64,000 nt of DNA from Candidatus Latescibacterota bacterium (GTDB lineage: Bacteria > Latescibacterota > UBA2968 > SICM01), in contig CBDCJO010000002.1 in assembly GCA_965217865.1 (NCBI GenBank), positions 4,576,001-4,640,000 of the forward strand. Direction: 5' to 3'. Shown here one piece after another: positions 6,925 through 37,595 of this stretch (position 1 is its first letter; each line of letters begins with the position of its first letter). A program made the translations under genes and the position numbers. Below the pieces are notes generated by a model, which did not search any database, had not been told where the DNA came from, and was given only the letters and a program-made list of their open reading frames with translations.

Positions 6925-7506
6925 TTACACCAGGTCACAGGCCTCGGCCGGCATCCAATGGGCGTCCTTTCCGTCCCATTTGACATTACAGCCGAGGGGA
7001 TTGGTCACCGGGTGGCTCACGGGGGCACCCGAAAGGTGCTCCTTCAGGGTGTTGTCGAGATCATTGACGGAAATCTTATCCGATTCCTTCGGATTATCCA
7101 CCCCTCGACCGGTGTAGATGAGTTTTCGATCCACGTCGAATACGAAAAAATGCGGCGTTCTGAGTGCCCCGTAGGCCAGGGCGACTTCCTGAGTCTTGTC
7201 GTGAAGGTAGAGCCAAGGAAAATGGTGGGTCCTCATCCGCTCGACCATATGCCCAAAGCTGTCGTTTGGGTGGGTGTTTTCGCTGTTGGAATTGATCATC
7301 ACAAATTTAACACCCTGTGGGAGGAACTGCTCGACGGTTTTTCGGGTGCCTTCGTCCGATCCGATGACATACGGACAGTGGTTGCAGGTGAATGAAACGA
7401 CCAGGACCCTGGAATCGTCGAAATCGGATAATTTGTAGCTCCTGCCGTCCGTCGCAGGCAGGTCGAAATCGGGTGCCTTCTCTCCGACATGCAATGTAAA
7501 CGCCAT
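6925..7506 (-). CDS. Thioredoxin-fold protein (AhpC/TSA, PRX-like1 type)
   Basis: [33 protein letters not shown]; RBS AAAGGAG. Confidence 0.9.
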
Positions 7507-7646
7507 GATCGACTCCTTTGAAGATTGTAGACTGAAGATTAATGATTTAGGTAATTAGCAGATTAAGGCTTGACTTTCAGTCCCTTTTTGGTTATATTAA
7601 GTGTAATGAAAACAATTAACTTAACCAAAAAAAGGGAGATAGGAAA

Positions 7647-8531
7647 ATGAACTTGTTGACGGCGATTGAAAAGTTCCCGACGCAGGAATCATGCATTGAG
7701 CATCTTGAGCGGGTAAGGTTCAGAGATGATCCGTTTTGTCCGCTGTGTGGGGCGGTTGGTGAGTGTGCCAGAAAGAAAGAGGGAACTCTTGTGGGGCGTT
7801 GGAACTGCCATGCCTGCGGGTCCAGCTTCAACGTTCTTTCGGGGACAATGTTTCAGGGTACGCATCTTCCGCTCCAGAAGTGGTTTATGGCAATCGCCTT
7901 GATCATCAACGCCAAGAAGAGCCTGTCCAGCTGCCAGCTTGCCCGGGACCTGAACCTTAACCAACGATCTGCATGGTATGTGCAACAGCGGATTCGCGCC
8001 GAGATGGCGACGAGGCAGGGGAAGATATTATTGCGAGGGATCGTCGAGGCAGACGAGACCTACGTTGGAGGCAAGCCACGGAAACGGAACAAGCGGTCAG
8101 GCGGTGGCAGCGCTCCCAGGGGGCGCGGAACCCGCAAGACTCCGGTTATAGGAGCCGTTGAGCGTGGAGGGAAGGTAGTTGCCCGTGTGGCGGACGATCT
8201 GTCTGGTAAGGGGGTTCTGGCCTTCGTCAAGCAGGCGATAGACCCTTCGGAAGAATCTGTGCTTATTACGGACGAATTCAGTTCCTACAGCGCAGTAAGG
8301 CAAATCATGAGTCATGCGGTGATCCACCACGCCAGGCATTACGCGGACGGTGATATACACACCAACACGATCGAAGGCGTGTGGTCCCTGCTCAAGAGAG
8401 CGTGGTACGGTTCACATCATCACTACACGAAGCGTTATACGCCGCTCTACGTGGCCGAAGCCTGCTACAAATACAACAACCGAAAAAACAAGCGGACGTT
8501 TGATACGTTCATGAAAGGGTGCTTCGCATAG
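7647..8531 (+). CDS. IS1595-family transposase A (intact)
   Basis: N-terminal Zn finger CPLC..CHAC, HTH, catalytic VEADET / LITDE / TNTIEGVW (ISXO2-like). Confidence 0.95.
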   Translation: MNLLTAIEKFPTQESCIEHLERVRFRDDPFCPLCGAVGECARKKEGTLVGRWNCHACGSSFNVLSGTMFQGTHLPLQKWFMAIALIINAKKSLSSCQLARDLNLNQRSAWYVQQRIRAEMATRQGKILLRGIVEADETYVGGKPRKRNKRSGGGSAPRGRGTRKTPVIGAVERGGKVVARVADDLSGKGVLAFVKQAIDPSEESVLITDEFSSYSAVRQIMSHAVIHHARHYADGDIHTNTIEGVWSLLKRAWYGSHHHYTKRYTPLYVAEACYKYNNRKNKRTFDTFMKGCFA

Positions 8532-8616
8532 CTTAAATTTGGAGGTTAAGTCAATGACCAATATTGAAATAATCAACAAGACGAAGACACAGGACCCGTC
8601 CATCAAAAATATTGGG

Positions 8617-8814
8617 TCAAACGTCTTCGTCACAATCGTTGATCGTCACGACAAGAGCCTGAGTTCCAATTATGATCGAGATCTCCGATCCGTCGGAAAT
8701 CAGGTTCATTGAAACAACACCATATTCCCCACAATAGATCGAGATTCGGCATGGCTTCGAGGACTCGCTTTTCAATCTTAAAACTGATCCTGGTTCGGCA
8801 TTGAAAGATGCCAT
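8617..8814 (-). CDS. Small hypothetical cargo protein of element A (65 aa)
   Basis: ATG with GGAG RBS directly downstream of the HExxH gene, same strand. Confidence 0.4.
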   Translation of the reverse strand: MASFNAEPGSVLRLKSESSKPCRISIYCGEYGVVSMNLISDGSEISIIIGTQALVVTINDCDEDV

Positions 8815-10053
8815 TTGGGTCTCCAGTAGACGCCCCCGCGTACATTTTTACCTCATTCCATCTGTGCCTGTTAATGCCGGTTTACTTGCTGGGTAGTATC
8901 CGAAGCGCCCGGCAATCTCCGCCACGTATTTTTGCCACATGGACGGCGTCCTTAGATACCAGCCATGAAGGTACGTCCCAAAATCCTGATTCTGGTTCCA
9001 TGAAACCGGTCCTTGAATATTCAGATAGCGGACAGCGTTCCACGCCTCCGGGTTGGTCTCGAAAATATCAATCAGATTGTGGGCGATCATATCGTTGGAT
9101 CTTCGGAGGTAAGGATTTTCCGATAATCCGGGAAGTCGCGCCTCAAACCACGCCCTGAATTGTGCCGCATCCATTCTCTGGCCGGGGATATTTTGTTCTG
9201 CATAGGGCAGGAGACGATTCATCATAGAATGAAGATACCATGTCGTGTTTTGGCTTGGAACATATACGTTGAGAACAGCGCCTGCCAAGATCTTCTCATG
9301 TATCTTCCTCAAAACGTACAATGAGGCCATACTTGATAGAGATTCATCAAACCATTTATTCGGTCCGCTTCGCACCTGATAATAGTTACTCATCAAGTGA
9401 CCATATTCATGGGCGAACTGAAAGACGTTTTGCTCGACATTAGTATTTTCCGTGTCTAACCAGATCACGTAAGAACCGGTTGGGGTGCGTGAGTATAGAA
9501 CTTTCGGACCCTCCGGTTCGACATGCCGAACGACTATATCAGAATCGAGAGCATAAATCAGTGGTTCTGACAAGGTTTTCTGAACACTCTTACAGACCGC
9601 TTGAACAAGTTCAACTGGTTGGCGCCATCCTCCAGGTTCGACGGTGATCGATGGCAATAACTTGGGACGAGTACGAGTGGGAGGAGATCCATCTCTATAA
9701 ACCGTTTCAATGATTGGCGCTGAAGGAGTAACAAGAACCGTTGTGTCTCTTACTACAAAGGTATCCAGAACCACATTATCGACGAACGTTGTATCTCTTA
9801 CCAGAAGGGTATCCAGAACCACACGATCGACGATCGTTGTATCTCTTACTACAACGGTATCAACTTCAACGGATTCAGGGTCGAAGATCTCCCCGCCCGA
9901 CTTTCCGAAATTGGAAGAAAATATGAAGAAGTCTTCAAGGTTTACCTCGCCGTTACCGTCCAGATCGCCGATCAGCCTTTCCTGAGCCGTTGCGGCCGCA
10001 AGCCATGTAACTACAAAAAAAACAGGGATTGCGTAGTTCGGGGCTTATAGGGC

Positions 10054-11670
10054 TTAAGCATTTAAGCGAAGCTCGGGCTGTTTCATGCCTCTTCCCACCA
10101 CGGCCGGAGTATCGAATTTCTTTCCCTCAAGAATTTCGTGGACGTTCAGCATCTGAAGGCGGGGATAGGCTGCGCTACCGATTTTCACGTCTCCCGCTCT
10201 GGCCATGAGGCGGTGAAAGTTGCGGGTTTTTGTCTCCCCCAAGGGATCCATGATAATCAACCCGGCCATCATTGCAAGGTCGTTGTCCAGGACCCCGCAT
10301 AAGGCGCGGAGGTCCCGAATCGATACGTTTTGTCCGCCCTTTACCTCAATGGCCATGTTATGCAAATCTCGTTTTCCTGGGCAATCGAAATACAATCGCC
10401 CATCGATCCCGCCGTCCGCCGTCCGCTTCGTGGTTACAAAACCATCTACTTCCTCAGTGGCCCATTTTTGAAAATGATAAGTGTCCCGTTCCCACAGGTC
10501 TTTCGCCCCTTCGGTGTTACGGGGCACACCTTCGATTTTGTAGTCTTGACCTTCGACCAGGCCCAGCTTGTCACGCAGCCTAAAAGCTGCTACGCGCTTG
10601 ATGGCATGTATGGCTATGTCAATACCTATCCACCGGCGTTTGAGTCTGTGGGCCGCTTCCAGCGTTGTAGCGCACCCACAAAAGGGATCGAATACGACAT
10701 CTCCATCAATGGAGCTGGCCTTGATGATGCGTTCAAGGAGTGCGAGCGGTTTCTGTGTGGCGTAGCCCATCCGTTCGGAAGACGTATTGGGAATTCTCCG
10801 TATATCGGTCCATATGTTTTGCAGTTGCTTGCCAGGTGCTTCATCCATATAGACCTTTAAGCCGTCCATGCGTGGCGTTCCGTCTCGCTTGGTCTGTATA
10901 CGTCCTTCTTCCCACCAAGATTCAAGTTGTTCGCGTCGATAACCCCAACAGCGCGTATTGCCGGGCCTTGTTCCTCGCCATTCAAATCTATCACGACCGG
11001 AAGTCGGCGCAGTCAAGTCGTCAAGTCTATATTTTCGTCCAGTGCTGTCAACATGTCGAAATCGGCCCAATTGCGCCTCTCCATAAGGCTGATATTGTGG
11101 ATTCCAGGTTGTAGTCCGGGAGTTTGAGTAGTACAATATGATGTCCGCAACATTACCGTATTTCCTGGCGTTGTTATGGCTTTCGGTCCTTTGCCAAGTG
11201 ATTTCATTTCTGAAATTCTGATGTCTGAAAATACCGTCCATCATGACTTTGATGTAGTGGGATGCGGTCGGATCACAATGCAGGTAAATCGAACCTGTTG
11301 GCTTCAGGATGCTTTTCATGTGGAGTAGGCGTTCAACCATATACGAGAGGTAGGCCAGCAAGCGGGGTTGTGTTTCTCTCAAGGCTTTCATCCACAGGTG
11401 CCAGAAAGCAGCTATGCTGTCATCAACACCGGATTCCCGCATTAATACAGGCATGGTTCTGATCGCTCGTTCACGCTCTTCATCCAGCGTCCATAGATCA
11501 CAGAAGGCATCAATCTGGTCCGGCAATGGTCGGCCCGTCCCATCCTTATAGATCGCATTGTAAGCCCGGTTGGAGTTGAATGGGGGATCGAGATAAATCA
11601 GGTCTACGCTGTCTTTCTTCATATATTCCTGCATGACCGTCAGGCAGTCGCCGTAATAGAGTTTGTTCAC
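10054..11670 (-). CDS. Beta-class N6A/N4C DNA methyltransferase fused to a C-terminal Mrr-like PD-(D/E)xK domain
   Basis: DPPF motif IV before DPFCGCAT motif I; C-terminal DGGIDG...IEVKGG; GTG start overlaps the TGA of transposase B (GTGA). Confidence 0.88.
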   Translation of the reverse strand: MNKLYYGDCLTVMQEYMKKDSVDLIYLDPPFNSNRAYNAIYKDGTGRPLPDQIDAFCDLWTLDEERERAIRTMPVLMRESGVDDSIAAFWHLWMKALRETQPRLLAYLSYMVERLLHMKSILKPTGSIYLHCDPTASHYIKVMMDGIFRHQNFRNEITWQRTESHNNARKYGNVADIILYYSNSRTTTWNPQYQPYGEAQLGRFRHVDSTGRKYRLDDLTAPTSGRDRFEWRGTRPGNTRCWGYRREQLESWWEEGRIQTKRDGTPRMDGLKVYMDEAPGKQLQNIWTDIRRIPNTSSERMGYATQKPLALLERIIKASSIDGDVVFDPFCGCATTLEAAHRLKRRWIGIDIAIHAIKRVAAFRLRDKLGLVEGQDYKIEGVPRNTEGAKDLWERDTYHFQKWATEEVDGFVTTKRTADGGIDGRLYFDCPGKRDLHNMAIEVKGGQNVSIRDLRALCGVLDNDLAMMAGLIIMDPLGETKTRNFHRLMARAGDVKIGSAAYPRLQMLNVHEILEGKKFDTPAVVGRGMKQPELRLNA

Positions 11671-11952
11671 GCAAAGCACCCCCGAATGAAGGCGCCGAAC
11701 GTGTTGTCGTTCTTTCTGTTGTTGTACTTGTAGCAGGTTTCGGCAACAAAGAGGGGCATGAACTTCCTGGTATAGTGGTGATGCGAACCATACCAGGCAC
11801 GCTTGAGCAAAGACCAGACTCCTTCAATCGTGTTGGTGTGGATGGAGCCATTGACATAGGTTTCCGAGTGCTTGACAACCGAATGCCTGAATGTCTTTTG
11901 AATTGGTGATTATGCACTTGACTAAGGTTGGCAGGTTTGGTAAATTGATGGG

Positions 11953-12471
11953 ATGGAATGGAAAAGTGTTTTTCGGAACCCGCTTTGCGCCTTGTCGGTG
12001 CTGGCTATGTTCGCAGGTTTACTGGTCGATTTTCAGGGGGCGGCGTCTAAAATGGCACGAGCTATTCCCCTAATAGAAGCCTTACTGCCATTGATAGCCC
12101 TTGGGGGGGTTACGTTCTTTGGGTTGTGGTCAATATGGGCGGTTCCATCATTCTTCTGGGCGCGTCGCCCTGCTGCCAAGTTTGGAACAAATTACTATTT
12201 CATAGTGAAATGCCGCAATGCCGTTGAAGGTCGCATTATCGGCATATTGGACAACAATTCTCACTTGTATGCCGGAATGACGGAACTTTCCAATACGTTG
12301 AGTCGATTCCGAATCCAATGTCCCAATATAAATCCTGACGATAAATATTACGCAGTAGTATGGTTCAACTTTCTTGCACAATTAGCGCCATTGGCACGGC
12401 ACGATGATTTGTACAATGCACGCAAACTTGGATTACGGGGAAATGAATCACATGACCGAACCCAACTTTAA
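11953..12471 (+). CDS. Hypothetical membrane protein (2 N-terminal hydrophobic helices), cargo of C
   Basis: 172-aa ORF with lower GC; ATG lies 6 nt after a -10 box (probably leaderless). Confidence 0.7.
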   Translation: MEWKSVFRNPLCALSVLAMFAGLLVDFQGAASKMARAIPLIEALLPLIALGGVTFFGLWSIWAVPSFFWARRPAAKFGTNYYFIVKCRNAVEGRIIGILDNNSHLYAGMTELSNTLSRFRIQCPNINPDDKYYAVVWFNFLAQLAPLARHDDLYNARKLGLRGNESHDRTQL

Positions 12472-13621
12472 GAACCGCACGATATGGACGGGCGACAACC
12501 TGGACATCATGCGTGGCATGAACTCCGAAAGCGTTGATCTGATCTACCTTGATCCGCCCTTCAACTCCAATCGCACCTACTCCGCGCCCGTAGGAAGCAA
12601 GGCGGCGGGGGCTGCCTTCAAGGATTCATGGTCGTTATCCGATTTGGATGTTGCCTGGATGGGGATCATTGCCGACAAACATCCGGGCATGTATAAGGTT
12701 CTGGAAGCGTCTGGCGTCGCTCACGGAAAAGGGATGCAATCCTATCTTTGCATGATGGGTGTCCGAATCCTTGAAATGCATCGTCTCTTGAAGCCTGCGG
12801 GGAGCATCTATCTTCATTGCGATCCCACGGCCAGTCACTACCTCAAGCTGCTTATGGACGCGGTATTCGGGCAGGAAAATTTTCGGAGTGAGATCACGTG
12901 GCGCCGTACCAATGCGAAAGGATTGGCGTTCAAGAGCTACCCGAACAACGCTGACTTTCTGTTGTACTACAGCAAAGCCGAATCTTTTACGTGGAATCGT
13001 CCATTTCGCTCCCATGATCCGACCTATTTAAAAAAATTTTACCGACATGTTGATCCAAAAACCGGACGGCGCTATCTACTCGACAATCTGGCGAACCCGA
13101 ACTCGGATCGCCCTAATTTGACATACGAGTTTCTCGGAGTAACCAGAGTTTGGCGTTGGACACGAAAACGAATGCAGAAAGCCTACGAACAGGGTCTCGT
13201 TGTGCAGCAACGTCCGGGTGCAGTTCCAAGACTCAAAAGGTATTTGGATGAGATGAAAGGCGCCCCGGTTGATACGATTTGGGACGATGTAAAGCCAGTA
13301 CAGGCTCAATCCGGGGAGCGCATCGGCTATCCCACCCAGAAGCCCCTTGTCCTCCTGAACAGGATCATCCAGGCAAGCAGCGACATCAACGATATGGTCA
13401 TGGACCCATTCTGCGGATGCGCAACGACCTGCGTGTCGGCGGACAAGCTGAACCGCCAATGGGTCGGAATAGACATCTCGCATAAAGCTTCCGAGCTTGT
13501 CAACATGAGACTTCAATCGGAATTGGGAGACCTTTATCATTCCCGCCTGGTTGCGGTCCGAACCGACGTTGTATCTATTCTGAGATAACAAGAGAAAAGC
13601 AGATAAAGGTCCAAGCAAGAT

Positions 13622-14653
13622 TCAGGCAGCCTTGTGGATGGTCTGGGATGTTCTTTGCCGATTGATTTCTATGCGGCGCTGCCGAGCCTCCTCCTTTCGA
13701 CCTTGTCGGTGGTGAAGAATCTTTTGATGCTGGCCTTTATGCCTCTGAAGAGGCGTGACATACTGTATTGCCCCGTGATAGCGTTCGGCGTTGTAGCTGT
13801 GAATGAAGGAATCAATCAGGCCTTCCAGTTGATGGAATGTGAAGATGTCCTGGAAGCGCAGCCAGTCGTATTTGAATGTCCGGAAAAAGGCTTCGATCCA
13901 GGCGTTGTCCGTGGGTGTTTGATATCGGGCAAACAGCTGCGAGATGCCCAGGTCCTTGAAGAATTGGGCCATCGATTTGGCCTTCATCTGAGATCCGTGA
14001 TCTGAGAGGGCTGTCAAGCTTATGGGCCCAGTGTCCAGGTCCAGCAGTCCTTCGTTGGCAAGGGCTTGATCCCAGGCCTGTTTGACCTGCTCCACGGTCG
14101 CGTTGAAGGAGAGCTTCCATCCTACGATCTTCCTGGAATACACGTCGAGAATGGCGGTAAAATACAGGAACAAACCGAAAAATGGGATGTAGGTCAGGTC
14201 CCAGCTCCAGACCTGATTAGGACCTTCAGGTTTGACCTGGGGCTTGCTCTGCTTGACCGGCGTCCTCACCTGTTTCCTGCGTGCCAGACGTTCTTTCCTG
14301 GCCTGTCGGTAGAAGCTGGAGGCCGAGGCCTGCACTACCCCCTTCTCTGAGGCTACCACCGCCAGCTGATGGGGAGGCAGATCGGCATAGGTCTCATCCC
14401 TTAAGAGGGCCGGGATTTGCTCTTTCTCCTCCCTCAGCAATCCGTGTGGGGCCTCATCAGGGGCGGGCCCGGGCTTCCCATCCAAAAGCGGGTCCGACAC
14501 CCCATCCAGCTTCTCTTCTCGATCTCGCCGGCTCCAGGCACAATACCGCTGGAGGGGAAGCTGTAGGATCTCGCAAGAACGGGTGAGTTTCACCCCTTTC
14601 TCCTTGGCCCGATGGACCATTAAGAGGATCTCGCGTTTGACCTCAGCTTGCAC
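13622..14653 (-). CDS. IS3 transposase OrfB (rve/DDE)
   Basis: WSWDLT, SDHGSQ, DNAWIEAFF, YNAERYH; probably made as OrfAB by -1 frameshift at A8G (14693-14701). Confidence 0.92.
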   Translation of the reverse strand: MQAEVKREILLMVHRAKEKGVKLTRSCEILQLPLQRYCAWSRRDREEKLDGVSDPLLDGKPGPAPDEAPHGLLREEKEQIPALLRDETYADLPPHQLAVVASEKGVVQASASSFYRQARKERLARRKQVRTPVKQSKPQVKPEGPNQVWSWDLTYIPFFGLFLYFTAILDVYSRKIVGWKLSFNATVEQVKQAWDQALANEGLLDLDTGPISLTALSDHGSQMKAKSMAQFFKDLGISQLFARYQTPTDNAWIEAFFRTFKYDWLRFQDIFTFHQLEGLIDSFIHSYNAERYHGAIQYVTPLQRHKGQHQKILHHRQGRKEEARQRRIEINRQRTSQTIHKAA

Positions 14654-14676
14654 CCGGTGGCCCTTGATCGGGCCTG

Positions 14677-15012
14677 TCAGATCCCATTCACACTTTTTTT
14701 TAGCAGGGAAAGTTCCACAGATTGCTCAATGATCGTTTGCTCCAGGCGTGCCCGCTCTTTGCGCAGCTGCTCCACCTCCTCAGCCGATACCATCGGCTTG
14801 CGGCTCCGGCGACCCTTGAACTCCTTGAGGGCCCCGGACTTGACCGACTCACGAATACGCTTTAGATCCGAGGAATGAATGCCCCATTTCCGCAGCACCT
14901 GTGCAATGGGAACATCTCCCCGGCTGGCTTCAAGGAAAATCTCATACTTCTGTTCCGGGGACAAGCTCCTGCGCTTCTTGACCGGGTCACTGTTTGAGGA
15001 CAGTTGCTCCAT
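14677..15012 (-). CDS. IS3 transposase OrfA (HTH)
   Basis: SPEQKYEI..IAQVLRKWGI HTH plus coiled coil; RBS AGGAGG. Confidence 0.88.
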   Translation of the reverse strand: MEQLSSNSDPVKKRRSLSPEQKYEIFLEASRGDVPIAQVLRKWGIHSSDLKRIRESVKSGALKEFKGRRSRKPMVSAEEVEQLRKERARLEQTIIEQSVELSLLKKSVNGI

Positions 15013-15399
15013 CTTTACTCCTCCTGTGAGGTCAGGGATATCCCAAAATATGTATCCCTTCTCAACCCTACAGGCAACCAGGATCTTGCTTCGACCTTGC
15101 CCCCGTTTTTTCGGGCGATCTCAGACAAAAGATAACGTTCCAAAGCGCACTGACTTGGGCGAACTTCCCGATTACCGAACGTACAAGCATATCCTGTTCG
15201 GCAAGCAGGAAGGAGTATGCGGTGGTTGTCGTTCAACGTTCCAGTTCAGGAACTTCACGGTGGATCATATCGTACCCAAAATCAAAGGAGGAACCAACCA
15301 CCAAGACAACCTGCAACTGCTCTGCGGAGCCTGTAACAGCTTGAAAGGTGATAGGCCGCAAGCCTATCTGGTGGCGAGATTGAAAGGCTTGGCCACACC

Positions 15400-16293
15400 T
15401 TAGGCCGCCGTCAGGTTCCGGTACGTGATGTTGTCCGTGTTCATGATCCGGCGAAGCGTATCGTGGAACAGGCGAGGATTGTTACGATTGTTGAACCTCC
15501 ATTCAAGCTCTTCAAGATAACGGTCCATATGCTTAGTGCTCATCTTGTGAAACGTCCCTACGATGGAACGCTTGAACAGGGACCAGACGCCCTCGACGCT
15601 GTTGGTGTGCACGTCGCCGACAACCCATTGCTCTTCGGAATGCCTGACGGTTTCATGACGGGTGTCATGGTCCTCGACTCCGAGATAGGATTTCAACTCG
15701 TCCGTGTAAATGGCTTCCGCTTCGTCCTTGACGGTTCGCCGGATAAAGTCATGAAGCGTCTGGCGTCTGACGTTGGAGATGCGCTCGATTCGGATGTTTC
15801 CGCCCCTCTGGACGGCCCCTGCGATCCAGGTTTTGTTTCCCTTGTAGGCGCGCCCCTTGTTCTTTGTCCTGCCTCCTACAAGCGTTTCGTCCACTTCCAC
15901 GACGCCGAGCAGCGTCGGCCCCTCAAACGGATCGTTGCCCATAGCCTTCCGGATTCTGTGGCAGAGATACCAGGCCGACCGGTAGGCGACGCCGAGCGTT
16001 CGTTGAAGTTGAAGCGCGGAGATGCCTTTTTTGGATTCGCACATCAGGTAGATCGCCAGGAACCATTTGCGAAGCGGCAGATGAGAATCATGCATGATGG
16101 TCCCGGACATAACGCTGAACTGGTACTCGCATGACCGGCATTCCCACAGGTTGTAATCGTGAAGCTCGTTTACCCCCGTGTCTCCGCAGCGCGTGCAACA
16201 TACGCCGTTCGGCCAGCGGATGCGCTCAAGGGCTTCCCTGCACTTCCCGTCATTGCCGAACCGGTCAATCAAGGAGATAATATTGACGTCCAT
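15400..16293 (-). CDS. IS1595-family transposase C (intact)
   Basis: CTRC..CRSC Zn finger, VEVDET / IYTDE / TNSVEGVW, RYLEELEWRFN; RBS AGGAG. Confidence 0.95.
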   Translation of the reverse strand: MDVNIISLIDRFGNDGKCREALERIRWPNGVCCTRCGDTGVNELHDYNLWECRSCEYQFSVMSGTIMHDSHLPLRKWFLAIYLMCESKKGISALQLQRTLGVAYRSAWYLCHRIRKAMGNDPFEGPTLLGVVEVDETLVGGRTKNKGRAYKGNKTWIAGAVQRGGNIRIERISNVRRQTLHDFIRRTVKDEAEAIYTDELKSYLGVEDHDTRHETVRHSEEQWVVGDVHTNSVEGVWSLFKRSIVGTFHKMSTKHMDRYLEELEWRFNNRNNPRLFHDTLRRIMNTDNITYRNLTAA

Positions 16294-16444
16294 GGATCAC
16301 ACTCCTAAGAAGAAGAAGAAATTGCCTAAGGATTTCGCCGAGCGGACCGACCACGAGCTCATGGAGCTGCTTTTCGGAAAACAGGTCATGAAAGCCGTTG
16401 ACAAGATCGTCGATGACCGGTCACAAGACTTTGACAGTAAGTAA
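16292..16444 (+). CDS. Possible small basic protein (50 aa) divergent from transposase C
   Basis: MDHTPKKKKKLPKDFAERTDHELMELLFGK...; its ATG overlaps the transposase start codon (CATG). Confidence 0.35.
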   Translation: MDHTPKKKKKLPKDFAERTDHELMELLFGKQVMKAVDKIVDDRSQDFDSK

Positions 16445-17782
16445 GTAACGTCGTCCATAGACTTAATATAACAATATTCTTATCCTTAGTCAAGTGCATA
16501 ATAACCTTTGAATTGCGTTGTAGGATTTGAATTCATCTGTCACCAGCAAGGAGCCGTCGGGCTTGACGGTCTTTTTGATGAACGCCATGACGCCTTTGCC
16601 CGAAAGGTCGTCTGTGACCCGGGCAACAACGTTTCCACCACGTTCAACGGCGCCTATAACCGGCGTTTTCTTTGTTCCTCTGCCTCTCGGGCGGGGGGGG
16701 GGTAGATGATCTCTTTCTGCCACCGACGTAGGTCTCGTCCGCTTCAACAATACCTTGCAGCAACAGAAAACCCTCTTTGCGTGCCATTTCCGCCCGTATG
16801 CGTTGTTGCATATACCAGGCCGACTTGTGATTCATTCCAAGGTCACGGCCCAACTGGTGGCTCGACAGGCTCTTCTTGGCGTGCATGACAAGTCCGATGG
16901 CAAAGAACCAGTCCTGCAACTGAAGCTTGGTGTTCTGGAAAATCGTGCCGGAAAGCACATTAAAACTGGCCTTGCATGAATGGCAGTTCCAACGTCCGAT
17001 TCTGTTGCCATCGGCTTTGCGGGCCACGTGGCCAACAACACCGCAGAGCGGGCAGTAAGGCTCATCACCAAAACGGACCTTTTCGAGATGCCTGATGCAC
17101 GATTCTTGATTGGGGAACCGCGCGAAGATTTGATGAATGGTCATTGCAACAACTCCTTTGTGGGGCTTGATGTTTGGTTGCCGAATGCTTATAATATAAG
17201 CAATCCAACCCCGATTGTCAAGCCCCAATCTACGCAATCCCAAAAAACAGATACTATAATTAAAACTTTCCGCATTTATCCCACCTCCTTGATGAGTAGT
17301 TTTGGCACCTGCCAAAAGAAGGTGCCGGGTAGAACCACCAATCACGCAGAGAGATGATGCGGGAAGGGTCCTGCTTATTCGCCGAACCGGGTTGCAAGGC
17401 CGGCTCTGGTGTTGTTGGCTATTATATTCGGCAGGCTACCCGACATGCGGGACTGCCTGATTGGTGGTACGTGGAATATAACCAACTCAGGACCGAAAGT
17501 CAAGCCTTAATCTGCTAATTGCGATGATTTATAGTCGAACCACCAGTTTTCCTGATGGCTCTTATTTATCTCGATTATCCTAAATATATAAATAAAGCCC
17601 CAGGAGAAGAATCAAGGGTTCTTGCCGGGAATCCTCCTGCCGGATTTGGATTCGATTCGTGACTTGACATCAACACCATGATTGGGTATCGTAGTGAATA
17701 TATTGTGTCTTCCATACGAAGCACCACATGTCCTTGTATTGGGTCGGTTGTGTAGTATGAAATCCCCTGGAAGAGGTCCCGC

Positions 17783-20700
17783 ATGAAAGGTCCGATCGGA
17801 TTGCCCCCCAAGCAAGGGCTTTACGATCCTCGCCACGAGCGCGATGCCTGTGGTATAGGCTTTGTCGTGAATATCCACGGGGAGAAGTCCCACCAGCTCG
17901 TGTGTCAGGCCCTTTCCGCCCTGAATTGTCTGAGCCATCGGGGCGCCCGGGGGTGTGAGGCGAACACGGGTGACGGCGCAGGTATCCTGCTGCAGGTTCC
18001 CCACAAATTTCTCCGGAAGGCCTGCCAAGAGATCGGCATAAAGCTCCCCGATCCGGGATCCTTCGGGGTGGGGATGGTTTTTCTTCCTCCGGACCGGGAC
18101 GAACGCCGACGATGCGAAGAGGTCTTTGAAGGGATTGTCGATGCGGAAGGCCAAAAGCTTTTGGGCTGGCGTGACGTTCCAAAGGGGGATGCCGATCTCG
18201 GGGCGACGGCTATGTCGTGCGAGCCCTTTATTCGGCAGATTTTCATCGGCCGGAACCCGAACCTCCAGGATGAAATGGCCTTTGAGCGAAAGCTCTATGT
18301 GATTCGAAAACGCGCTGAGAAGGCCATCCGTTATGAAGGCGACCTCCCGGGAGGCGGTTTTTTCTACGTCCCCAGCCTTTCATGTCGGACGATCATCTAT
18401 AAGGGAATGCTCACATCCCAACAGGTCGGAGAGTTCTACGCGGACTTGAAAGATCCGCTTATGGAAACCGGGCTGGCTTTGATCCATTCCCGGTTCAGCA
18501 CGAATACCTTTCCCTCGTGGGAGCTTTCCCATCCCTATCGCTACATGATTCACAACGGAGAGATCAATACCCTGCGGGGCAATACAAACTGGATGTATAC
18601 ACGCCAGGCCATGCTCTCCTCAGATCTGTTCGGAAGCGACATCGAAAAGCTCTTTCCGATCATCCAGGAGGACGGGAGCGACTCGGCCAAATTCGACAAC
18701 TGTCTGGAGTTTTTGAGCCTGGGCGGCCGCTCTCTGCCGCACGCGGTGATGATGATGATCCCGGAACCCTGGGAGAATCACGAGCAAATGAGCGATGAGA
18801 AAAAGGCCTTCTATGAGTACCACAGCTGCCTTATGGAACCGTGGGACGGTCCCGCTTCGATCGCTTTTACGGACGGCATCCGGGTCGGGGCCGTGCTCGA
18901 CCGGAACGGATTGCGTCCCTCTCGCTATTACGTGACAAAGGACGATCTGGTGATCATGGCCTCCGAGGTGGGTGTTCTGGATGTGCCCCCGGAGCGGGTG
19001 CTTCACAAGGGAAGGCTCCAGCCGGGCAGGATGTTCCTCGTCGACACGGAGGAAGGCGGGATCATCAGCGATGAGGCGTTGAAGCATCGGATCGCGGAGG
19101 AGCATCCCTATCGCCTGTGGCTTGACGAGCACCTGGTGGACTTTGAAAAGATTCCCGACGTTCCTCACCAGGATTCTGAATTAGACCACGAGACGGTTCT
19201 GCAGCGACAGCAGGTCTTCGGCTATACGTTCGAAGACCTACGTGTGAACATCGGCCCCATGGCCACGGATGCGATCATGCCGCTCGGGTCGATGGGGAAC
19301 GATGCGCCGCTTGCAGCCCTTTCCGACCAATCGCACCTGCTCTACAACTACTTCAAACAACTGTTCGCGCAGGTCACGAACCCTCCGATCGATCCGATCC
19401 GAGAGGAGCTCATCACAGCGACCGAGACCACTCTAGGATCGGAGCGCAATCTCCTGAACCCAGAGCCGGAGAGCTGCCGACAGATCCGGCTCAAGACCCC
19501 GATCCTCAAGGATGAGGAACTGGAGAAGCTTCGTCGCATCGACAGGCCGGGATTCAAGGCCGGGACCCTGTCGATCACCTTTAAGGTCGCGGACGGAGAG
19601 GCAGGGCTCGAAATCGGTCTGGAAAGGCTTTTCAAGGCGGCCGACCGGGCGATCGATGAGGGGGTGAACATCCTGATCCTGTCGGATAAAGCCTTCGATC
19701 GGGAAAAGGCACCGATTCCGGCCCTCCTGGCGGTCTCGGGTCTTCATCACCATCTGATCCGGGAGGGGAAACGCACCCGGGTGGGCCTGGTGCTCGAATC
19801 CGGGGAGCCGAGGGAGGTCCACCACTTCTGCCTGCTGTTGAGCTACGGGGCTCAGGCCATCAACCCATACATGGTCTACGAGAGCCTGAGGGACATGATC
19901 CGGGAGGGCTTGTTAACCGACCTGACCTTTGAGGAGGCCGTGAAGGGTTACAACAAGGCCGGGATGAAGGGTGTGGTCAAGGTTATGTCGAAGATGGGGA
20001 TCTCCACATTCAAGTCTTATCGGGGGGCACAGATCTTCGAGGCCGTGGGGATCAAACAGGCCGTGATCGACAAGTACTTCACCTGGACCGATTCCCGGGT
20101 GGAAGGTGTCGGCCTGGATACGATCGCCGTGGAGGCGCAAAATCGGCACGAGAGAGCATTTCCGAAAATCCCTGTGAACGGCAACACCCTGGATGTCGGG
20201 GGACTGTACCAGTGGCGTCAGGACGGCGAGCATCATATGTTCAACCCCCAGACCGTGCACAAGCTCCAGCTGGCGTGCCGCACGAACAACTACGATGTCT
20301 TCAAGGAATACGCGGAGCTGATCAATGATCAGTCCGTTAAACTCGGTACGCTGCGCGGCCTCCTGGACCTGAAGTATGCCCCGGAGCCGATTCCGATCGA
20401 GGAGGTGGAACCCGTTGAATCGATCTGTCGACGATTCAAGAGCGGCGCCATGTCCTACGGTTCGATCAGCAAGGAGGCACACGAGACCCTGGCGATTGCG
20501 ATGAACCGAATCGGCGGCAAGAGCAACACCGGGGAGGGGGGTGAGGACCCCGCACGCTACACCCTGGACCCCAATGGAGATTCGCGCAACAGCGCAATCA
20601 AACAGGTCGCTTCGGGTCGTTTCGGCGTCACCACCAACTATCTGGTAAACGCCAAGGAGCTTCAGATCAAAATGGCGCAGGGGGCAAAGCCCGGCGAGGG

Positions 20701-22390
20701 CGGAGAGCTGCCCGGGCGGAAGGTCTACCCCTGGATCGCCAAGGTAAGATTCTCCACGCCGGGAGTGGGTCTGATCTCACCCCCACCGCACCACGACATC
20801 TATTCGATCGAAGATCTGGCACAGTTGATACACGATCTCAAGAACGCCAATCATCACGCCCGGATCAACGTCAAGCTGGTTTCCGAGGTCGGCGTCGGGG
20901 TGATCGCAGCGGGTGTGGCCAAAGGCCACGCGGACGTGGTTCTGATCAGCGGACTCGACGGCGGAACCGGCGCCTCCCCTCAGACGAGCATCAAACACGC
21001 GGGTTTACCGTGGGAGCTGGGTCTTGCGGAAACCCATCAGGTGCTGGTCCTGAACAACCTGCGGAGCCGGATCGTGGTGGAGACCGACGGCCAATTGAAA
21101 ACCGGCCGGGACGTTGTGGTCGCAACGCTTCTCGGTGCGGAGGAGTTCGGGTTTGCCACGGCCCCGCTGGTCGCTCTGGGTTGCATCATGATGCGTGTCT
21201 GCCACCTGGATACCTGTCCGGTCGGTGTGGCGACGCAGAATCCTGAGCTCCGAAAGAAGTTCACGGGTGATCCCCAGCACGCGGTCAATTTCATGCAGTT
21301 CATCGCCCGGAATATGCGCGAGATCATGGCCCGGCTCGGATTCCGGACGATCAACGAGATGATCGGGCGCTCGGACCGGCTGGAACCGAGGAAGGCCATA
21401 GCCCACTGGAAGGCCCGGGGTTTGGATTTCTCGAAGATCCTCTACCAACCCGACGTCGGTCCTGAGGTGGGCCGCTACTGTCAGATCCCACAGGATCACG
21501 GCCTGGACATGGCGCTTGACAACCGGGTGCTTCTAGATCTGTGCAAACCCGCTCTTGAGCGGGGCGAGCAGGTCAAGGCGGAAGTTCCTATCCGGAATAC
21601 CGATCGTGTGGTCGGCACGATCCTGGGCAGTGAAATCACCCGCCGATTCGGTCCGGACGGCTTGCCGGAGGACACCATCCATCTGAATTTAAAGGGGTCA
21701 GCGGGCCAGAGTTTCGGGGCCTTCATACCCCTCGGTTTAACCCTCGAACTGGAGGGAGACGCGAATGACTACTTCGGCAAAGGGCTTTCGGGCGGGAAGC
21801 TCATCCTATATCCACCCGAGGGATCGACGTTCAAACCCGAAGAGAACATCATCGTTGGGAACGTGGCTTTTTACGGGGCCACGTCTGGGGAGGCCTACAT
21901 CTGCGGGATGGCCGGAGAGCGGTTCTGTGTCCGGAACAGCGGGGTGCGGGCGGTGATCGAATCGGTGGGGGACCATGGATGCGAGTATATGACCGGCGGC
22001 CGGGTCGTGGTCCTCGGCGCGACGGGAAGAAATTTCGGCGCCGGGATGTCGGGTGGAATCGCGTATGTTCTGGACGAGTCAGGGGAATTCACCGTCCACT
22101 GCAACCGGGAAACGGTCGAGATCGAGCGCCTGGAAGAGGAGGATGAGATCGAAGAGGTCAGGGGGATGATCCATTGCCACGTAGAGTACACCAGGAGCGA
22201 ACTGGGACGACGCGTTCTTGCCAAATGGGGGGAGACGACCTCGAACTTCGTGAAGGTCATGCCGAAAGACTACAAACGGATGCTGGAGGCCCTCAAGCGG
22301 GCGGAGGAGGCTGGATTGAGCGGGGATGAAGCGGTGATGGTGGCCTTCGAGGAAAACAAGAGCGATCTCGCACGGGTCAGTGGGAACTAG
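17783..22390 (+). CDS. gltB: Glutamate synthase large subunit
   Basis: ERDACGIG amidotransferase N-terminus, [20 protein letters not shown], 3Fe-4[19 protein letters not shown]-terminal domain. Confidence 0.98.
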
Positions 22391-36820: not shown

Positions 36821-37595
36821 GGTGATTATGCACTTGACTAAGGAACAATCCTCGCCTGTTCCACGATACGCTCCGCAGAATCATGAACACGGACAATATC
36901 ACGTACCGGGAATTGGTAGCAGCTTGACTACCAGCACCATATCGGTATGGATCATCCATTTCTGGTTAGACCTCCACGCCTTGTAATCTTTGCCATGGAT
37001 ACGGAGAGTGCCAATTTCCGTGAAAGCTGAAAATTGATTTAGACCTTGGTCGTCGGGGTCAACGTTGATAGGATCGGCCAGATATGCTGGTATGGCGAAC
37101 GCTACGTATGCGTCCTCGTGCTTTGGAATGTGCGCTCTGTCTGATCTTGACGAAATGCTGGTACTCGGGTTCATAAAGTCAGAAGCACCGAATACAGCGT
37201 CTTCTACTCTTAATGCCACATACCAAATTGGCTCAGGTGAATGGCCAATGGATACAGCGTTGTATGCTTCCTCCAGCTGCTCGGTTGATAATTCGCCCTT
37301 CTCCGGCTTAGATATCGGAGAAGGGCGGATGACAGACCATAACCAAGGTCCAAGGAGGACAATCGGCGCTGAAGCGAGCAACGCAACACTTACTCCTAGT
37401 TCCAGATTCAACATGGGCAACCACTCGTTTTTCCACACTTTGATATCATCGCTAACTCCAGCCAATCCAATGGCCCCAGAGCCGACGGCATACAATGCCC
37501 GAAAAACGAAGAAGAACTTAGCCATCTACCCATGATAACCTCTCTTTCTTGGCCCGTCAATATGAAATAGTAACTTAGTCAAGTGCATAATTACC
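36821..37595. mobile_element. Non-autonomous IS1595 derivative (MIC-like, 775 bp) sharing TIRs with element C
   Basis: TIRs at 36821-36843 and 37574-37595; TSD TTTCGATA at 36813-36820 and 37596-37603; last 27 transposase codons at 36844-36927. Confidence 0.93.
36899..37525 (-). CDS. Hypothetical membrane-anchored cargo protein (208 aa)
   Basis: Two N-terminal hydrophobic segments; TTGACG-17-TATCAT promoter ending 6 nt before the ATG. Confidence 0.7.
   Translation of the reverse strand: MAKFFFVFRALYAVGSGAIGLAGVSDDIKVWKNEWLPMLNLELGVSVALLASAPIVLLGPWLWSVIRPSPISKPEKGELSTEQLEEAYNAVSIGHSPEPIWYVALRVEDAVFGASDFMNPSTSISSRSDRAHIPKHEDAYVAFAIPAYLADPINVDPDDQGLNQFSAFTEIGTLRIHGKDYKAWRSNQKWMIHTDMVLVVKLLPIPGT

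Follow-up and report, generated by a model that had tools for sequence, protein, structure and literature searches.

The window, a 64,000-nucleotide stretch of DNA from a Candidatus Latescibacterota bacterium, holds four mobile elements stacked in an intergenic region flanked by divergent genes. This raises the question of how such a stack came about: by chance, by a preference of the elements for one another, or through the travel of a ready-made unit. The left neighbor is a redoxin gene (6925-7506, minus strand, divergent), and the right neighbor (17783-22390, plus strand) is a probable glutamate synthase gene. The four-element nest is genuine, as all target site duplications (TSDs), inverted ends, and un-nested lengths were verified. 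Its outer shell is an IS1595 element, A (7550-17523, plus strand), which encloses a second IS1595 element, B (10025-17241, minus strand), which in turn encloses a third, C (11905-16506, minus strand), with an IS3-family element inside (13570-15134, minus strand). As originally predicted, perfect TSD copies flank each of them: ATGATTTA (8 bp) at 7542-7549 and 17524-17531 for A, AAAAAACA at 10017-10024 and 17242-17249 for B, TTTGAATT at 11897-11904 and 16507-16514 for C, and ACGT (4 bp) at 13566-13569 and 15135-15138 for the IS3 element. The un-nested sizes, when recomputed, agreed exactly with those claimed (A, 2749 bp; B, 2607 bp; C, 3033 bp; IS3, 1565 bp), and the assignment to three IS1595 elements and one IS3, with passenger genes within the IS1595 elements, was also supported. 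Excision of each element with one TSD copy had been said to restore an open frame at every junction. This holds for the A cargo gene, for the C methyltransferase-HNH gene, and for the B frame across the C junction, but not for the B transposase as a whole, where an independent frameshift remains once C is removed. Among the 52 IS1595-type insertions of this genome, an identical 8-mer was shared by unrelated targets in 6 of 2652 comparisons, which is the chance level for a TSD. A, B, and C all have the terminal inverted repeats (IRs) of about 25 bp and the AT-rich 8-bp TSD of IS1595, and Rfam gave zero matches across 7400-17800.

The left IR of A (7550-7598, plus strand) holds an inward sigma-70-like site (TTGACT-17-TATATT), and its right IR (17475-17523, minus strand) has an inward sigma-70-like site directed toward the cargo gene. 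The transposase, an open frame of 294 residues (7647-8531, plus strand), has Zn ribbon and DDE motifs and matches Pfam PF12762/PF12760 and NCBIfam NF033547 above cut-off. An HTNTIEG motif among the IS1595 elements of the stack may point to the ISNwi1 subgroup of IS1595. The ends of A form an imperfect pair (GGT.../CGC...), and damage to the right one was ruled out, since CGC ends are common among identical multi-copy relatives. Because CGC is the usual end in this family, the original prediction of intact ends stands; transposase and ends both look intact in sequence. Insertion of B split the cargo gene of A into a 3' part (8848-10024, minus strand), coding for a dockerin/EF-hand-like motif, short repeats, and an HExxH zincin-like peptidase domain, and the severed first codons (17250-17275, minus strand), which begin a signal-peptide-like stretch. 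Rejoined in silico, the frame comprises 400 codons, and its product is predicted to be secreted. Against Pfam, Peptidase_M78 matched weakly and under cut-off, and a fold search with the domain returned nothing at E<=0.001, its weak matches all being zinc metallopeptidases.

Element B is bounded by 22-bp IRs (10025-10046 and 17220-17241) and has un-nested kin at two other loci (L027, 2610 bp; L030, 2631 bp). Its cargo is an intact 541-residue beta-class DNA methyltransferase (10054-11679, minus strand), the start of which overlaps the stop of the B transposase and the C-terminal domain of which matches Mrr_cat in two homologues (L027 and L069), one of them above cut-off. The transposase is divided into a 3' part (11667-11904, minus strand) and a 5' part (16515-17144, minus strand), the latter matching PF12760 and NF033547 just below cut-off; read through, it is 65% identical to that of A. 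The frameshift lies in a G10 run (16693-16702) and is unlikely to be a sequencing error, since contigs of the public runs X1 and X3 agree with the window. One base fewer, in frame, was seen in one low-depth contig each of X6 and X7. Split and frameshifted, B now appears dead as an autonomous element.

Element C, 4602 bp long with its IS3 insertion, has an open frame for a 297-residue transposase (15400-16293, minus strand; PF12762 and NF033547 above cut-off) that is 36% identical to that of A and 39% to that of B. Its first cargo gene (11953-12471, plus strand) encodes a 172-residue protein with a hydrophobic N-terminal part and no match in Pfam or PADLOC. The second encodes a methyltransferase-HNH fusion, of which the 5' part (12452-13569, plus strand) contains the entire methyltransferase domain and the 3' part (15139-15403, plus strand) the HNH nuclease domain, severed by the IS3 element. 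After excision of IS3, the frame runs on without a break (460 residues from a probable start) and is 73% identical over 455 residues to an intact public homologue. The IS3 element resembles its family in its orfA (14677-15012; weak HTH_Tnp_1 match) and orfB (to 13622; rve integrase core), in an A8G slippery run (about 14693-14701) inside their overlap that is a predicted -1 frameshift signal, in its 4-bp TSD, and in its score of 172.5 bits with profile NF033516 (cut-off, 160); the IS481 profile stayed under its cut-off (113 versus 224). IS3-family elements canonically end in TG...CA. One end of the present element is canonical, whereas the other is TA instead of the usual TG, and its IRs are loosely matched. 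The genome holds 39 copies of full length, 10 of them exact; the TSD measured 4 bp in 17, 5 bp in 3, and 0 to 2 bp in 18, with 1 not scored.

We consider it most probable that the three IS1595 elements, each with its cargo, and the IS3 piled up by chance at AT-rich targets in a repeat-crowded genome. Repeats account for 1.14 of 6.43 Mb (about 18% of the DNA), and the mobile content includes 55 IS1595 transposase loci plus MITEs and 89 full-length IS1182-like copies besides the IS3 elements. IS1595 transposases favor AT-rich 8-bp targets, which are over-represented within IS1595 DNA, where insertions are likely tolerated; each nesting step would be an ordinary DDE transposition. The AT-rich targets ascribed to IS1595 were confirmed (83% AT over 41 sites), and the idea of an AT-rich safe haven fits. 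IS1595-type DNA represents 1.3% of the genome but 3.2% of the target weight, or 5.1% of that weight when long host open reading frames are left out. In the target model, the three stack sites fall within the 97th to 99.8th percentiles, much as ordinary sites do (median 99.6).

Alternatively, IS1595 transposases could actively prefer other IS1595 elements, e.g., by binding related ends or AT-rich end promoters, and so produce an excess of stacks. A GG/CG..AATT..TTGAC end motif is indeed common to all lineages, and B, like the inner element of a nest in another genome (L149), inserted near the outer right end; C, however, inserted in the middle of a transposase gene, distant from the ends. Nesting of IS1595 in IS1595 was found in 2 of 52 complete insertions, both in this stack, and in none of the other 50. 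With one more, partial case (an A-family element within a short IS1595, C2:1262074), the total is 3 of about 75 to 80 IS1595-type insertions, a count that was set by hand, as were the borders of partial elements, against 1.3 to 2.1 expected in a time-ordered simulation with AT-rich target bias (P = 0.15 to 0.36). The original prediction of repeated targeting among IS1595 lineages is thus not supported, at low power: the 95% interval for 3/75 reaches 11% and is therefore compatible with an added preference of two- to three-fold. Under uniform targets, 3/75 is borderline (P = 0.07; time averaged, 0.013). The three-deep IS1595 chain speaks for preference, being rare in simulated genomes (1.3 to 3.4% with AT bias and 0.2% without target bias), but the window was picked for its nesting from a very large scan. 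Moreover, of 205 full-length copies from unrelated IS families, 7 lie in IS1595 DNA, the product of 4 independent events, which is a comparable frequency (Fisher P = 0.61). Ten other genomes were surveyed, two of which had no IS1595. The other eight held about 173 IS1595 elements and 8 close pairs, of which one (L149) is a nest that retains the outer ends and TSD, and another (L064) is probably nested; these counts are a lower bound, since only pairs in which both members keep the DDE domain are detected. The six remaining pairs proved to be inverted duplicates, neighbors, or recombined copies. A candidate fourth case in the present genome, a short IS1595 in a 232-bp MITE (C2:1073947 and 3767449), was dropped, since its surroundings are an IS630-like remnant and its two copies arose within a single larger duplication. 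Self-targeting, tested in this genome, with other IS families as a control, and in the 10 other genomes, showed no excess over AT bias, and we regard it as rather unlikely. The freely accessible literature searched gave no account of three IS1595 elements nested in one another or of self-targeting in this family, and the analysis supplies a measured null for such targeting.

The history of the stack had been called fully reconstructable. The order of containment could be shown, but nesting does not give the timing or place of each step. A second C::IS3 copy, differing by one base and flanked by its own TSD, TAAGAAAT, lies at G000:C2:312143-316744; the inner pair thus likely jumped as a single unit, and two copies with different TSDs argue for transposition of the composite. 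IS3 probably entered C once, with the composite copied afterwards, so that C::IS3 may have entered B ready-made, which leaves the history only partly ordered. Another composite, A-family::IS1182, has two TSD pairs. Both composites measure 4.4 to 4.6 kb and are present in two copies each, which points to the movement of nested units some 4.5 kb long. Whenever an outer element that has kept its ends moves, the element inside would be carried along, the transposase being that of the outer element (C and A) or of a relative.

These composites, together with the apparent integrity of A and about a dozen A-family transposases that could act in trans, also favor assembly of the stack at another place, with arrival or continued travel as one A-driven 10-kb transposon carrying several methylase genes. 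Mobility of the whole stack, as originally proposed, is conceivable in that A could carry it, but no second copy of A, of B, or of the stack was found in this genome or 30 relatives. In addition, related units that have ends and TSD reach about 5 kb at most, two of the four cargo genes are broken, and in one public run a deletion (joint 9915->17323) that takes out B and part of A is a sign of decay. The host site without the stack (joint 7541->17524, 8 shared letters) was recovered from X3 (side 22) and X9 (side 45, depth 13.4), suggesting that A transposed as a unit, and an IS3-free junction (13565->15135) is present in X3 and X6. Clean intermediates at the host site (A lacking B, or B lacking C) were absent from the 8 runs, as would also be expected from the arrival of a ready-made stack; however, the empty alleles differ by further indels and seem to come from diverged strains. 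Travel of the whole stack is, in our view, improbable. An assembly artefact of repeated elements is far less credible. In its favor, the bridge over the B/C-left junction measures 29 letters (in three runs), the IS3 junctions, both identical between the two genomic C copies, are not among the contig pieces listed, the stack is not covered from end to end by any one record, and the assembly may itself derive from some of the runs. Against it, five of the eight junctions (host/A, A/B, C/B, B/A, and A/host) are bridged with at least 31 letters on each side by contigs from runs of two studies, the four exact TSDs come with restored frames, A and B are single copy, and an empty site exists.

For the cargo, the outcome would be a broken peptidase gene in A, a C methylase parted from its HNH nuclease, and a B methylase-nuclease gene left intact but separated from the B promoter by 4.6 kb. 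The stack is also a natural record that IS1595 tolerates large nested cargo and that a 4.6-kb IS-in-IS unit was copied with a fresh TSD. The cargo is a more useful lead than the nesting. B and C cargo combine methyltransferase and nuclease domains in one polypeptide (N6_N4_Mtase plus HNH, with Mrr_cat in the B homologues) and are candidate single-chain restriction-modification enzymes by their domain content; no description of their biochemical activity was found in the papers searched. All nine full-length genomic copies of this methylase subfamily lie within IS1595 elements, and methylase-nuclease cargo also accompanies related transposases in other phyla. An obligate partnership of methyltransferase-HNH genes with IS1595 was ruled out, an IS1595 transposase being found within 1.5 kb in only 11 of 58 methyltransferase loci, some of which overlap and the flanks of which are short. 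It is a doubtful proposition that the IS1595 transporters of this microbial community shuttle methylase-nuclease modules of a single gene, with an exchangeable HNH or Mrr-like nuclease and a variable central region, across phyla, and that these transporters prefer one another as targets and move as whole stacks with several specificities, this 10-kb stack included. Stacks that did move whole and by preference could spread several DNA-methylation patterns together. Named relatives such as Poribacteria, the only clue to the community, suggest a sponge type; no paper on IS1595 transposases in sponge symbionts was found in the literature searched.

Several known systems resemble this stack. Transposon-like restriction-modification units, in which restriction-modification genes lie between imperfect IRs with an 8-bp duplication (Furuta et al. 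2010, PMC2853133), share with B and C the placement of cargo between IRs with an 8-bp TSD. As described there (PMC2853133), an intact transposase is missing from most of those units, which have separate R and M genes or Type IIG genes, whereas in B and C a transposase is present and the cargo is a beta-class methyltransferase fused to an HNH or Mrr-like domain. Nested "Russian doll" transposable elements, named as such in TnCentral (10.1101/2021.05.26.445724), likewise consist of an element within an element, the outer carrying the inner; here, three of the four layers come from one IS family, and the core is without a selected resistance gene. Finally, A, B, and C are new examples of cargo-carrying IS1595 elements, the tIS defined in TnCentral (10.1101/2021.05.26.445724), with methylase-nuclease genes in B and C. 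Each has a passenger gene within the IRs of a single IS, and they are like the examples tISCpe8 and MTnSag1/tISSag10 in their IS1595 DDE transposase, terminal IRs of about 25 bp, 8-bp TSD, AT-rich targets, and passenger beside the transposase (PMC5704250). Unlike the lincosamide resistance carried by the tIS described in that work (PMC5704250), the passengers of the stack are methylase-nuclease fusions and a peptidase, and its three IS1595 elements are nested in one another.

Sequence inspection of the stack (window 7542..17531) showed that each of its four elements, the three nested cargo-carrying IS1595 elements A, B, and C and the IS3 innermost in C, has inverted ends and an exact target duplication (TSD) at its predicted boundaries. 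In silico excision gave un-nested lengths of 2749 bp for A, 2607 bp for B, 3033 bp for C, and 1565 bp for IS3, confirming the four-element nest of the original prediction. The nested structure is real and clean. The ends of A start with unlike bases (GGT versus CGC), as is usual in its family; the IS1595 transposase frames of A and C are open, and the innermost element matches the IS3 profile. An open frame had been claimed at every junction, and this held for the cargo of A and C. Excising B left the A cargo, a HExxH peptidase-like gene, as a single 400-codon frame, and excising IS3 rejoined the two halves of MTase-HNH, the methylase-nuclease fusion carried by C, into a product that shares 73% identity with an intact public homologue across 455 residues. 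The B transposase frame also runs on over the C junction, yet a second, independent defect had been overlooked, a frameshift within a G10 run (16693-16702). At this position, contigs of public runs X1 and X3 match the window, and one low-depth contig each in X6 and X7 is in frame.

Contigs from eight public runs, some of which may be the source of the assembly itself, bridged five of the eight junctions by at least 31 letters and the left B/C junction by 29 letters, and no IS3 junction was among the pieces listed. The empty host site sought in the original prediction was found in X3 and X9, probably in diverged strains, because other indels lie close by. A junction without IS3 was present in X3 and X6, and the joints listed from the eight runs included no clean A-without-B or B-without-C joint. 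In X5, a deletion (window 9915-17323) with four other letters at its joint removes all of B plus flanking A, at a depth similar to that of the nested form.

B lies in a T-run close to the start of the A cargo gene; C interrupts the B transposase midway, and IS3 interrupts the linker separating the methylase and nuclease of C. Most likely, each insertion would have been an ordinary DDE transposition event with an AT-rich 8-mer as its target, and the insertions would have been retained since no host gene was harmed. A and C are probably still mobile, and B cannot move on its own; circular intermediates have been reported for one IS1595 element (PMC5704250).

The source genome harbors a second copy of C carrying IS3 (contig C2:312143-316744), with one base different in 4602 and another 8-bp TSD, and no C without IS3. 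A composite of an A-family element and IS1182 has two TSD pairs, afterwards scrambled between copies. Therefore, these 4.4- to 4.6-kb composites were likely copied whole, and the history is not fully reconstructable as had been proposed; IS3 may already have been inside C when C inserted into B. The two IS1182 composite copies have swapped halves (C2:3356315-3359123, 3581637-3584753, and 3670489-3674882), probably via recombination between IS1182 copies. Movement of the entire stack, also proposed, is possible: the A transposase is open and its ends are normal for its family, but the whole stack, A, and B each occur once in the source genome, and no copy was found in 30 relatives.

Repeated DNA makes up 1.14 of the 6.43 Mb of this genome, which contains 55 IS1595 transposase loci, IS1595-type MITEs, and full copies of IS3 (39) and IS1182-like elements (89). 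The A family has about a dozen copies, with transposases 89 to 95% identical to that of A and varying cargo (MTase-HNH, small unknown proteins, and an HsdR-N-like protein), and Panacea antitoxin-like genes are cargo in other IS1595 lineages. A non-autonomous 775-bp derivative at window 36821-37595 (TSD TTTCGATA) has C-type ends and a 208-aa unknown cargo; the genome contains three copies of it. Five of the six IS1595 ends of the stack contain an inward sigma-70-like site with its -35 box (TTGAC) inside the inverted repeat (window 7570-7598, 17475-17503, 17193-17221, 16465-16493, and 11918-11946); the scan found 19 sites versus 9.3 in shuffles.

The suggestion that IS1595 lineages target one another is unsupported. 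Targets are 83% AT (41 sites outside the stack), and IS1595-type DNA, 1.3% of the genome, accounts for 3.2% of target weight, or 5.1% with long host ORFs excluded. The three IS1595 sites of the stack score like ordinary sites. Only 2 of 52 complete insertions, both in the stack, are IS1595 in IS1595; one partial case brings this to 3 of about 75 to 80, versus 1.3 to 2.1 expected in a time-ordered simulation (P 0.15 to 0.36). Other IS families entering IS1595 DNA were no different (4 independent events among 205 copies, P 0.61), and eight other genomes with about 173 elements gave 8 close pairs, of which 2 (one of them probable) are nested, as a lower bound. Against AT bias alone, a three-deep chain arose in just 1.3 to 3.4% of simulated genomes, 3 of 75 is borderline under uniform targets, and its interval leaves room for a two- to three-fold preference. 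The window was chosen for its nesting in the course of a very large scan, and such selection explains a 1 to 3% event. Among the other genomes, G012 has IS1595 transposase genes as long inverted facing pairs around about 2.5 kb (L152:2366-7236, L153), and G011 has an 1131-bp IS1595-type family of about 56 copies (L149:5082-6212, L155:2145-3275) whose TSD, from flanks inspected and uncounted, is seemingly about 10 bp and GC-richer rather than 8 AT-rich bases.

Un-nested relatives of B (L027, 2610 bp; L030, 2631 bp) share its transposase-methylase layout. Transposase A has relatives in Latescibacterota, Poribacteria, Chloroflexota, Verrucomicrobiota, Acidobacteriota, and one alphaproteobacterium, with the same methylase just downstream in 12 of 61 loci, many of them copies from one genome. 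An IS1595 transposase lies within 1.5 kb at only 11 of 58 loci retrieved by methylase; the link is therefore frequent, not obligate. All nine full-length methylase copies of the source genome lie inside IS1595 elements. Joints in X3, X8, and X9 connect transposase ends with methylase in both orientations.

Two independent lesions lie within 3 codons of each other in the MTase-HNH linker, namely IS3 in C (window 13566-13570) and, in an A-family element, a TAG stop (L016:1108-1116, C2:3671510). Both keep the methylase domain whole and lose the nuclease, in two of the four distinct MTase-HNH elements of the genome, and may reflect selection for nuclease loss with methylation retained. The transposases of the A and C lineages are 36% identical, and their MTase-HNH genes have 74 to 87% DNA identity at both ends around an unalignable middle (window 12452-15403 versus L014, L016, and L017), as would be expected if both cargo and the target-recognition region had been exchanged. 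The A cargo (window 8848-10024 plus 17250-17275) is a member of a small, unnamed family of predicted secreted proteins (24 hits) with dockerin-like and HExxH features; intact paralogues lie outside IS1595 (C1:322747-323882, C2:3263974-3265011), and its confident structural model had no clear match in a structure search. Related elements carry a 1194-aa PA14/C-lectin/beta-helix surface protein (L054:7227-10808), a Type IIG-like restriction-modification enzyme (L034:6908-9730), and a dockerin protein (L053:9320-10414).

Nested elements are commonplace in the literature, and restriction-modification genes in inverted-repeat-bounded units with 8-bp duplications have already been published (PMC2853133). 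The literature searched, whose coverage excluded the main family paper, held no description of an IS1595 triple nest or of IS1595 self-targeting. In the features tested, A, B, and C match IS1595 transporter elements (as defined in TnCentral; properties from PMC5704250) and are new elements of an already known type.
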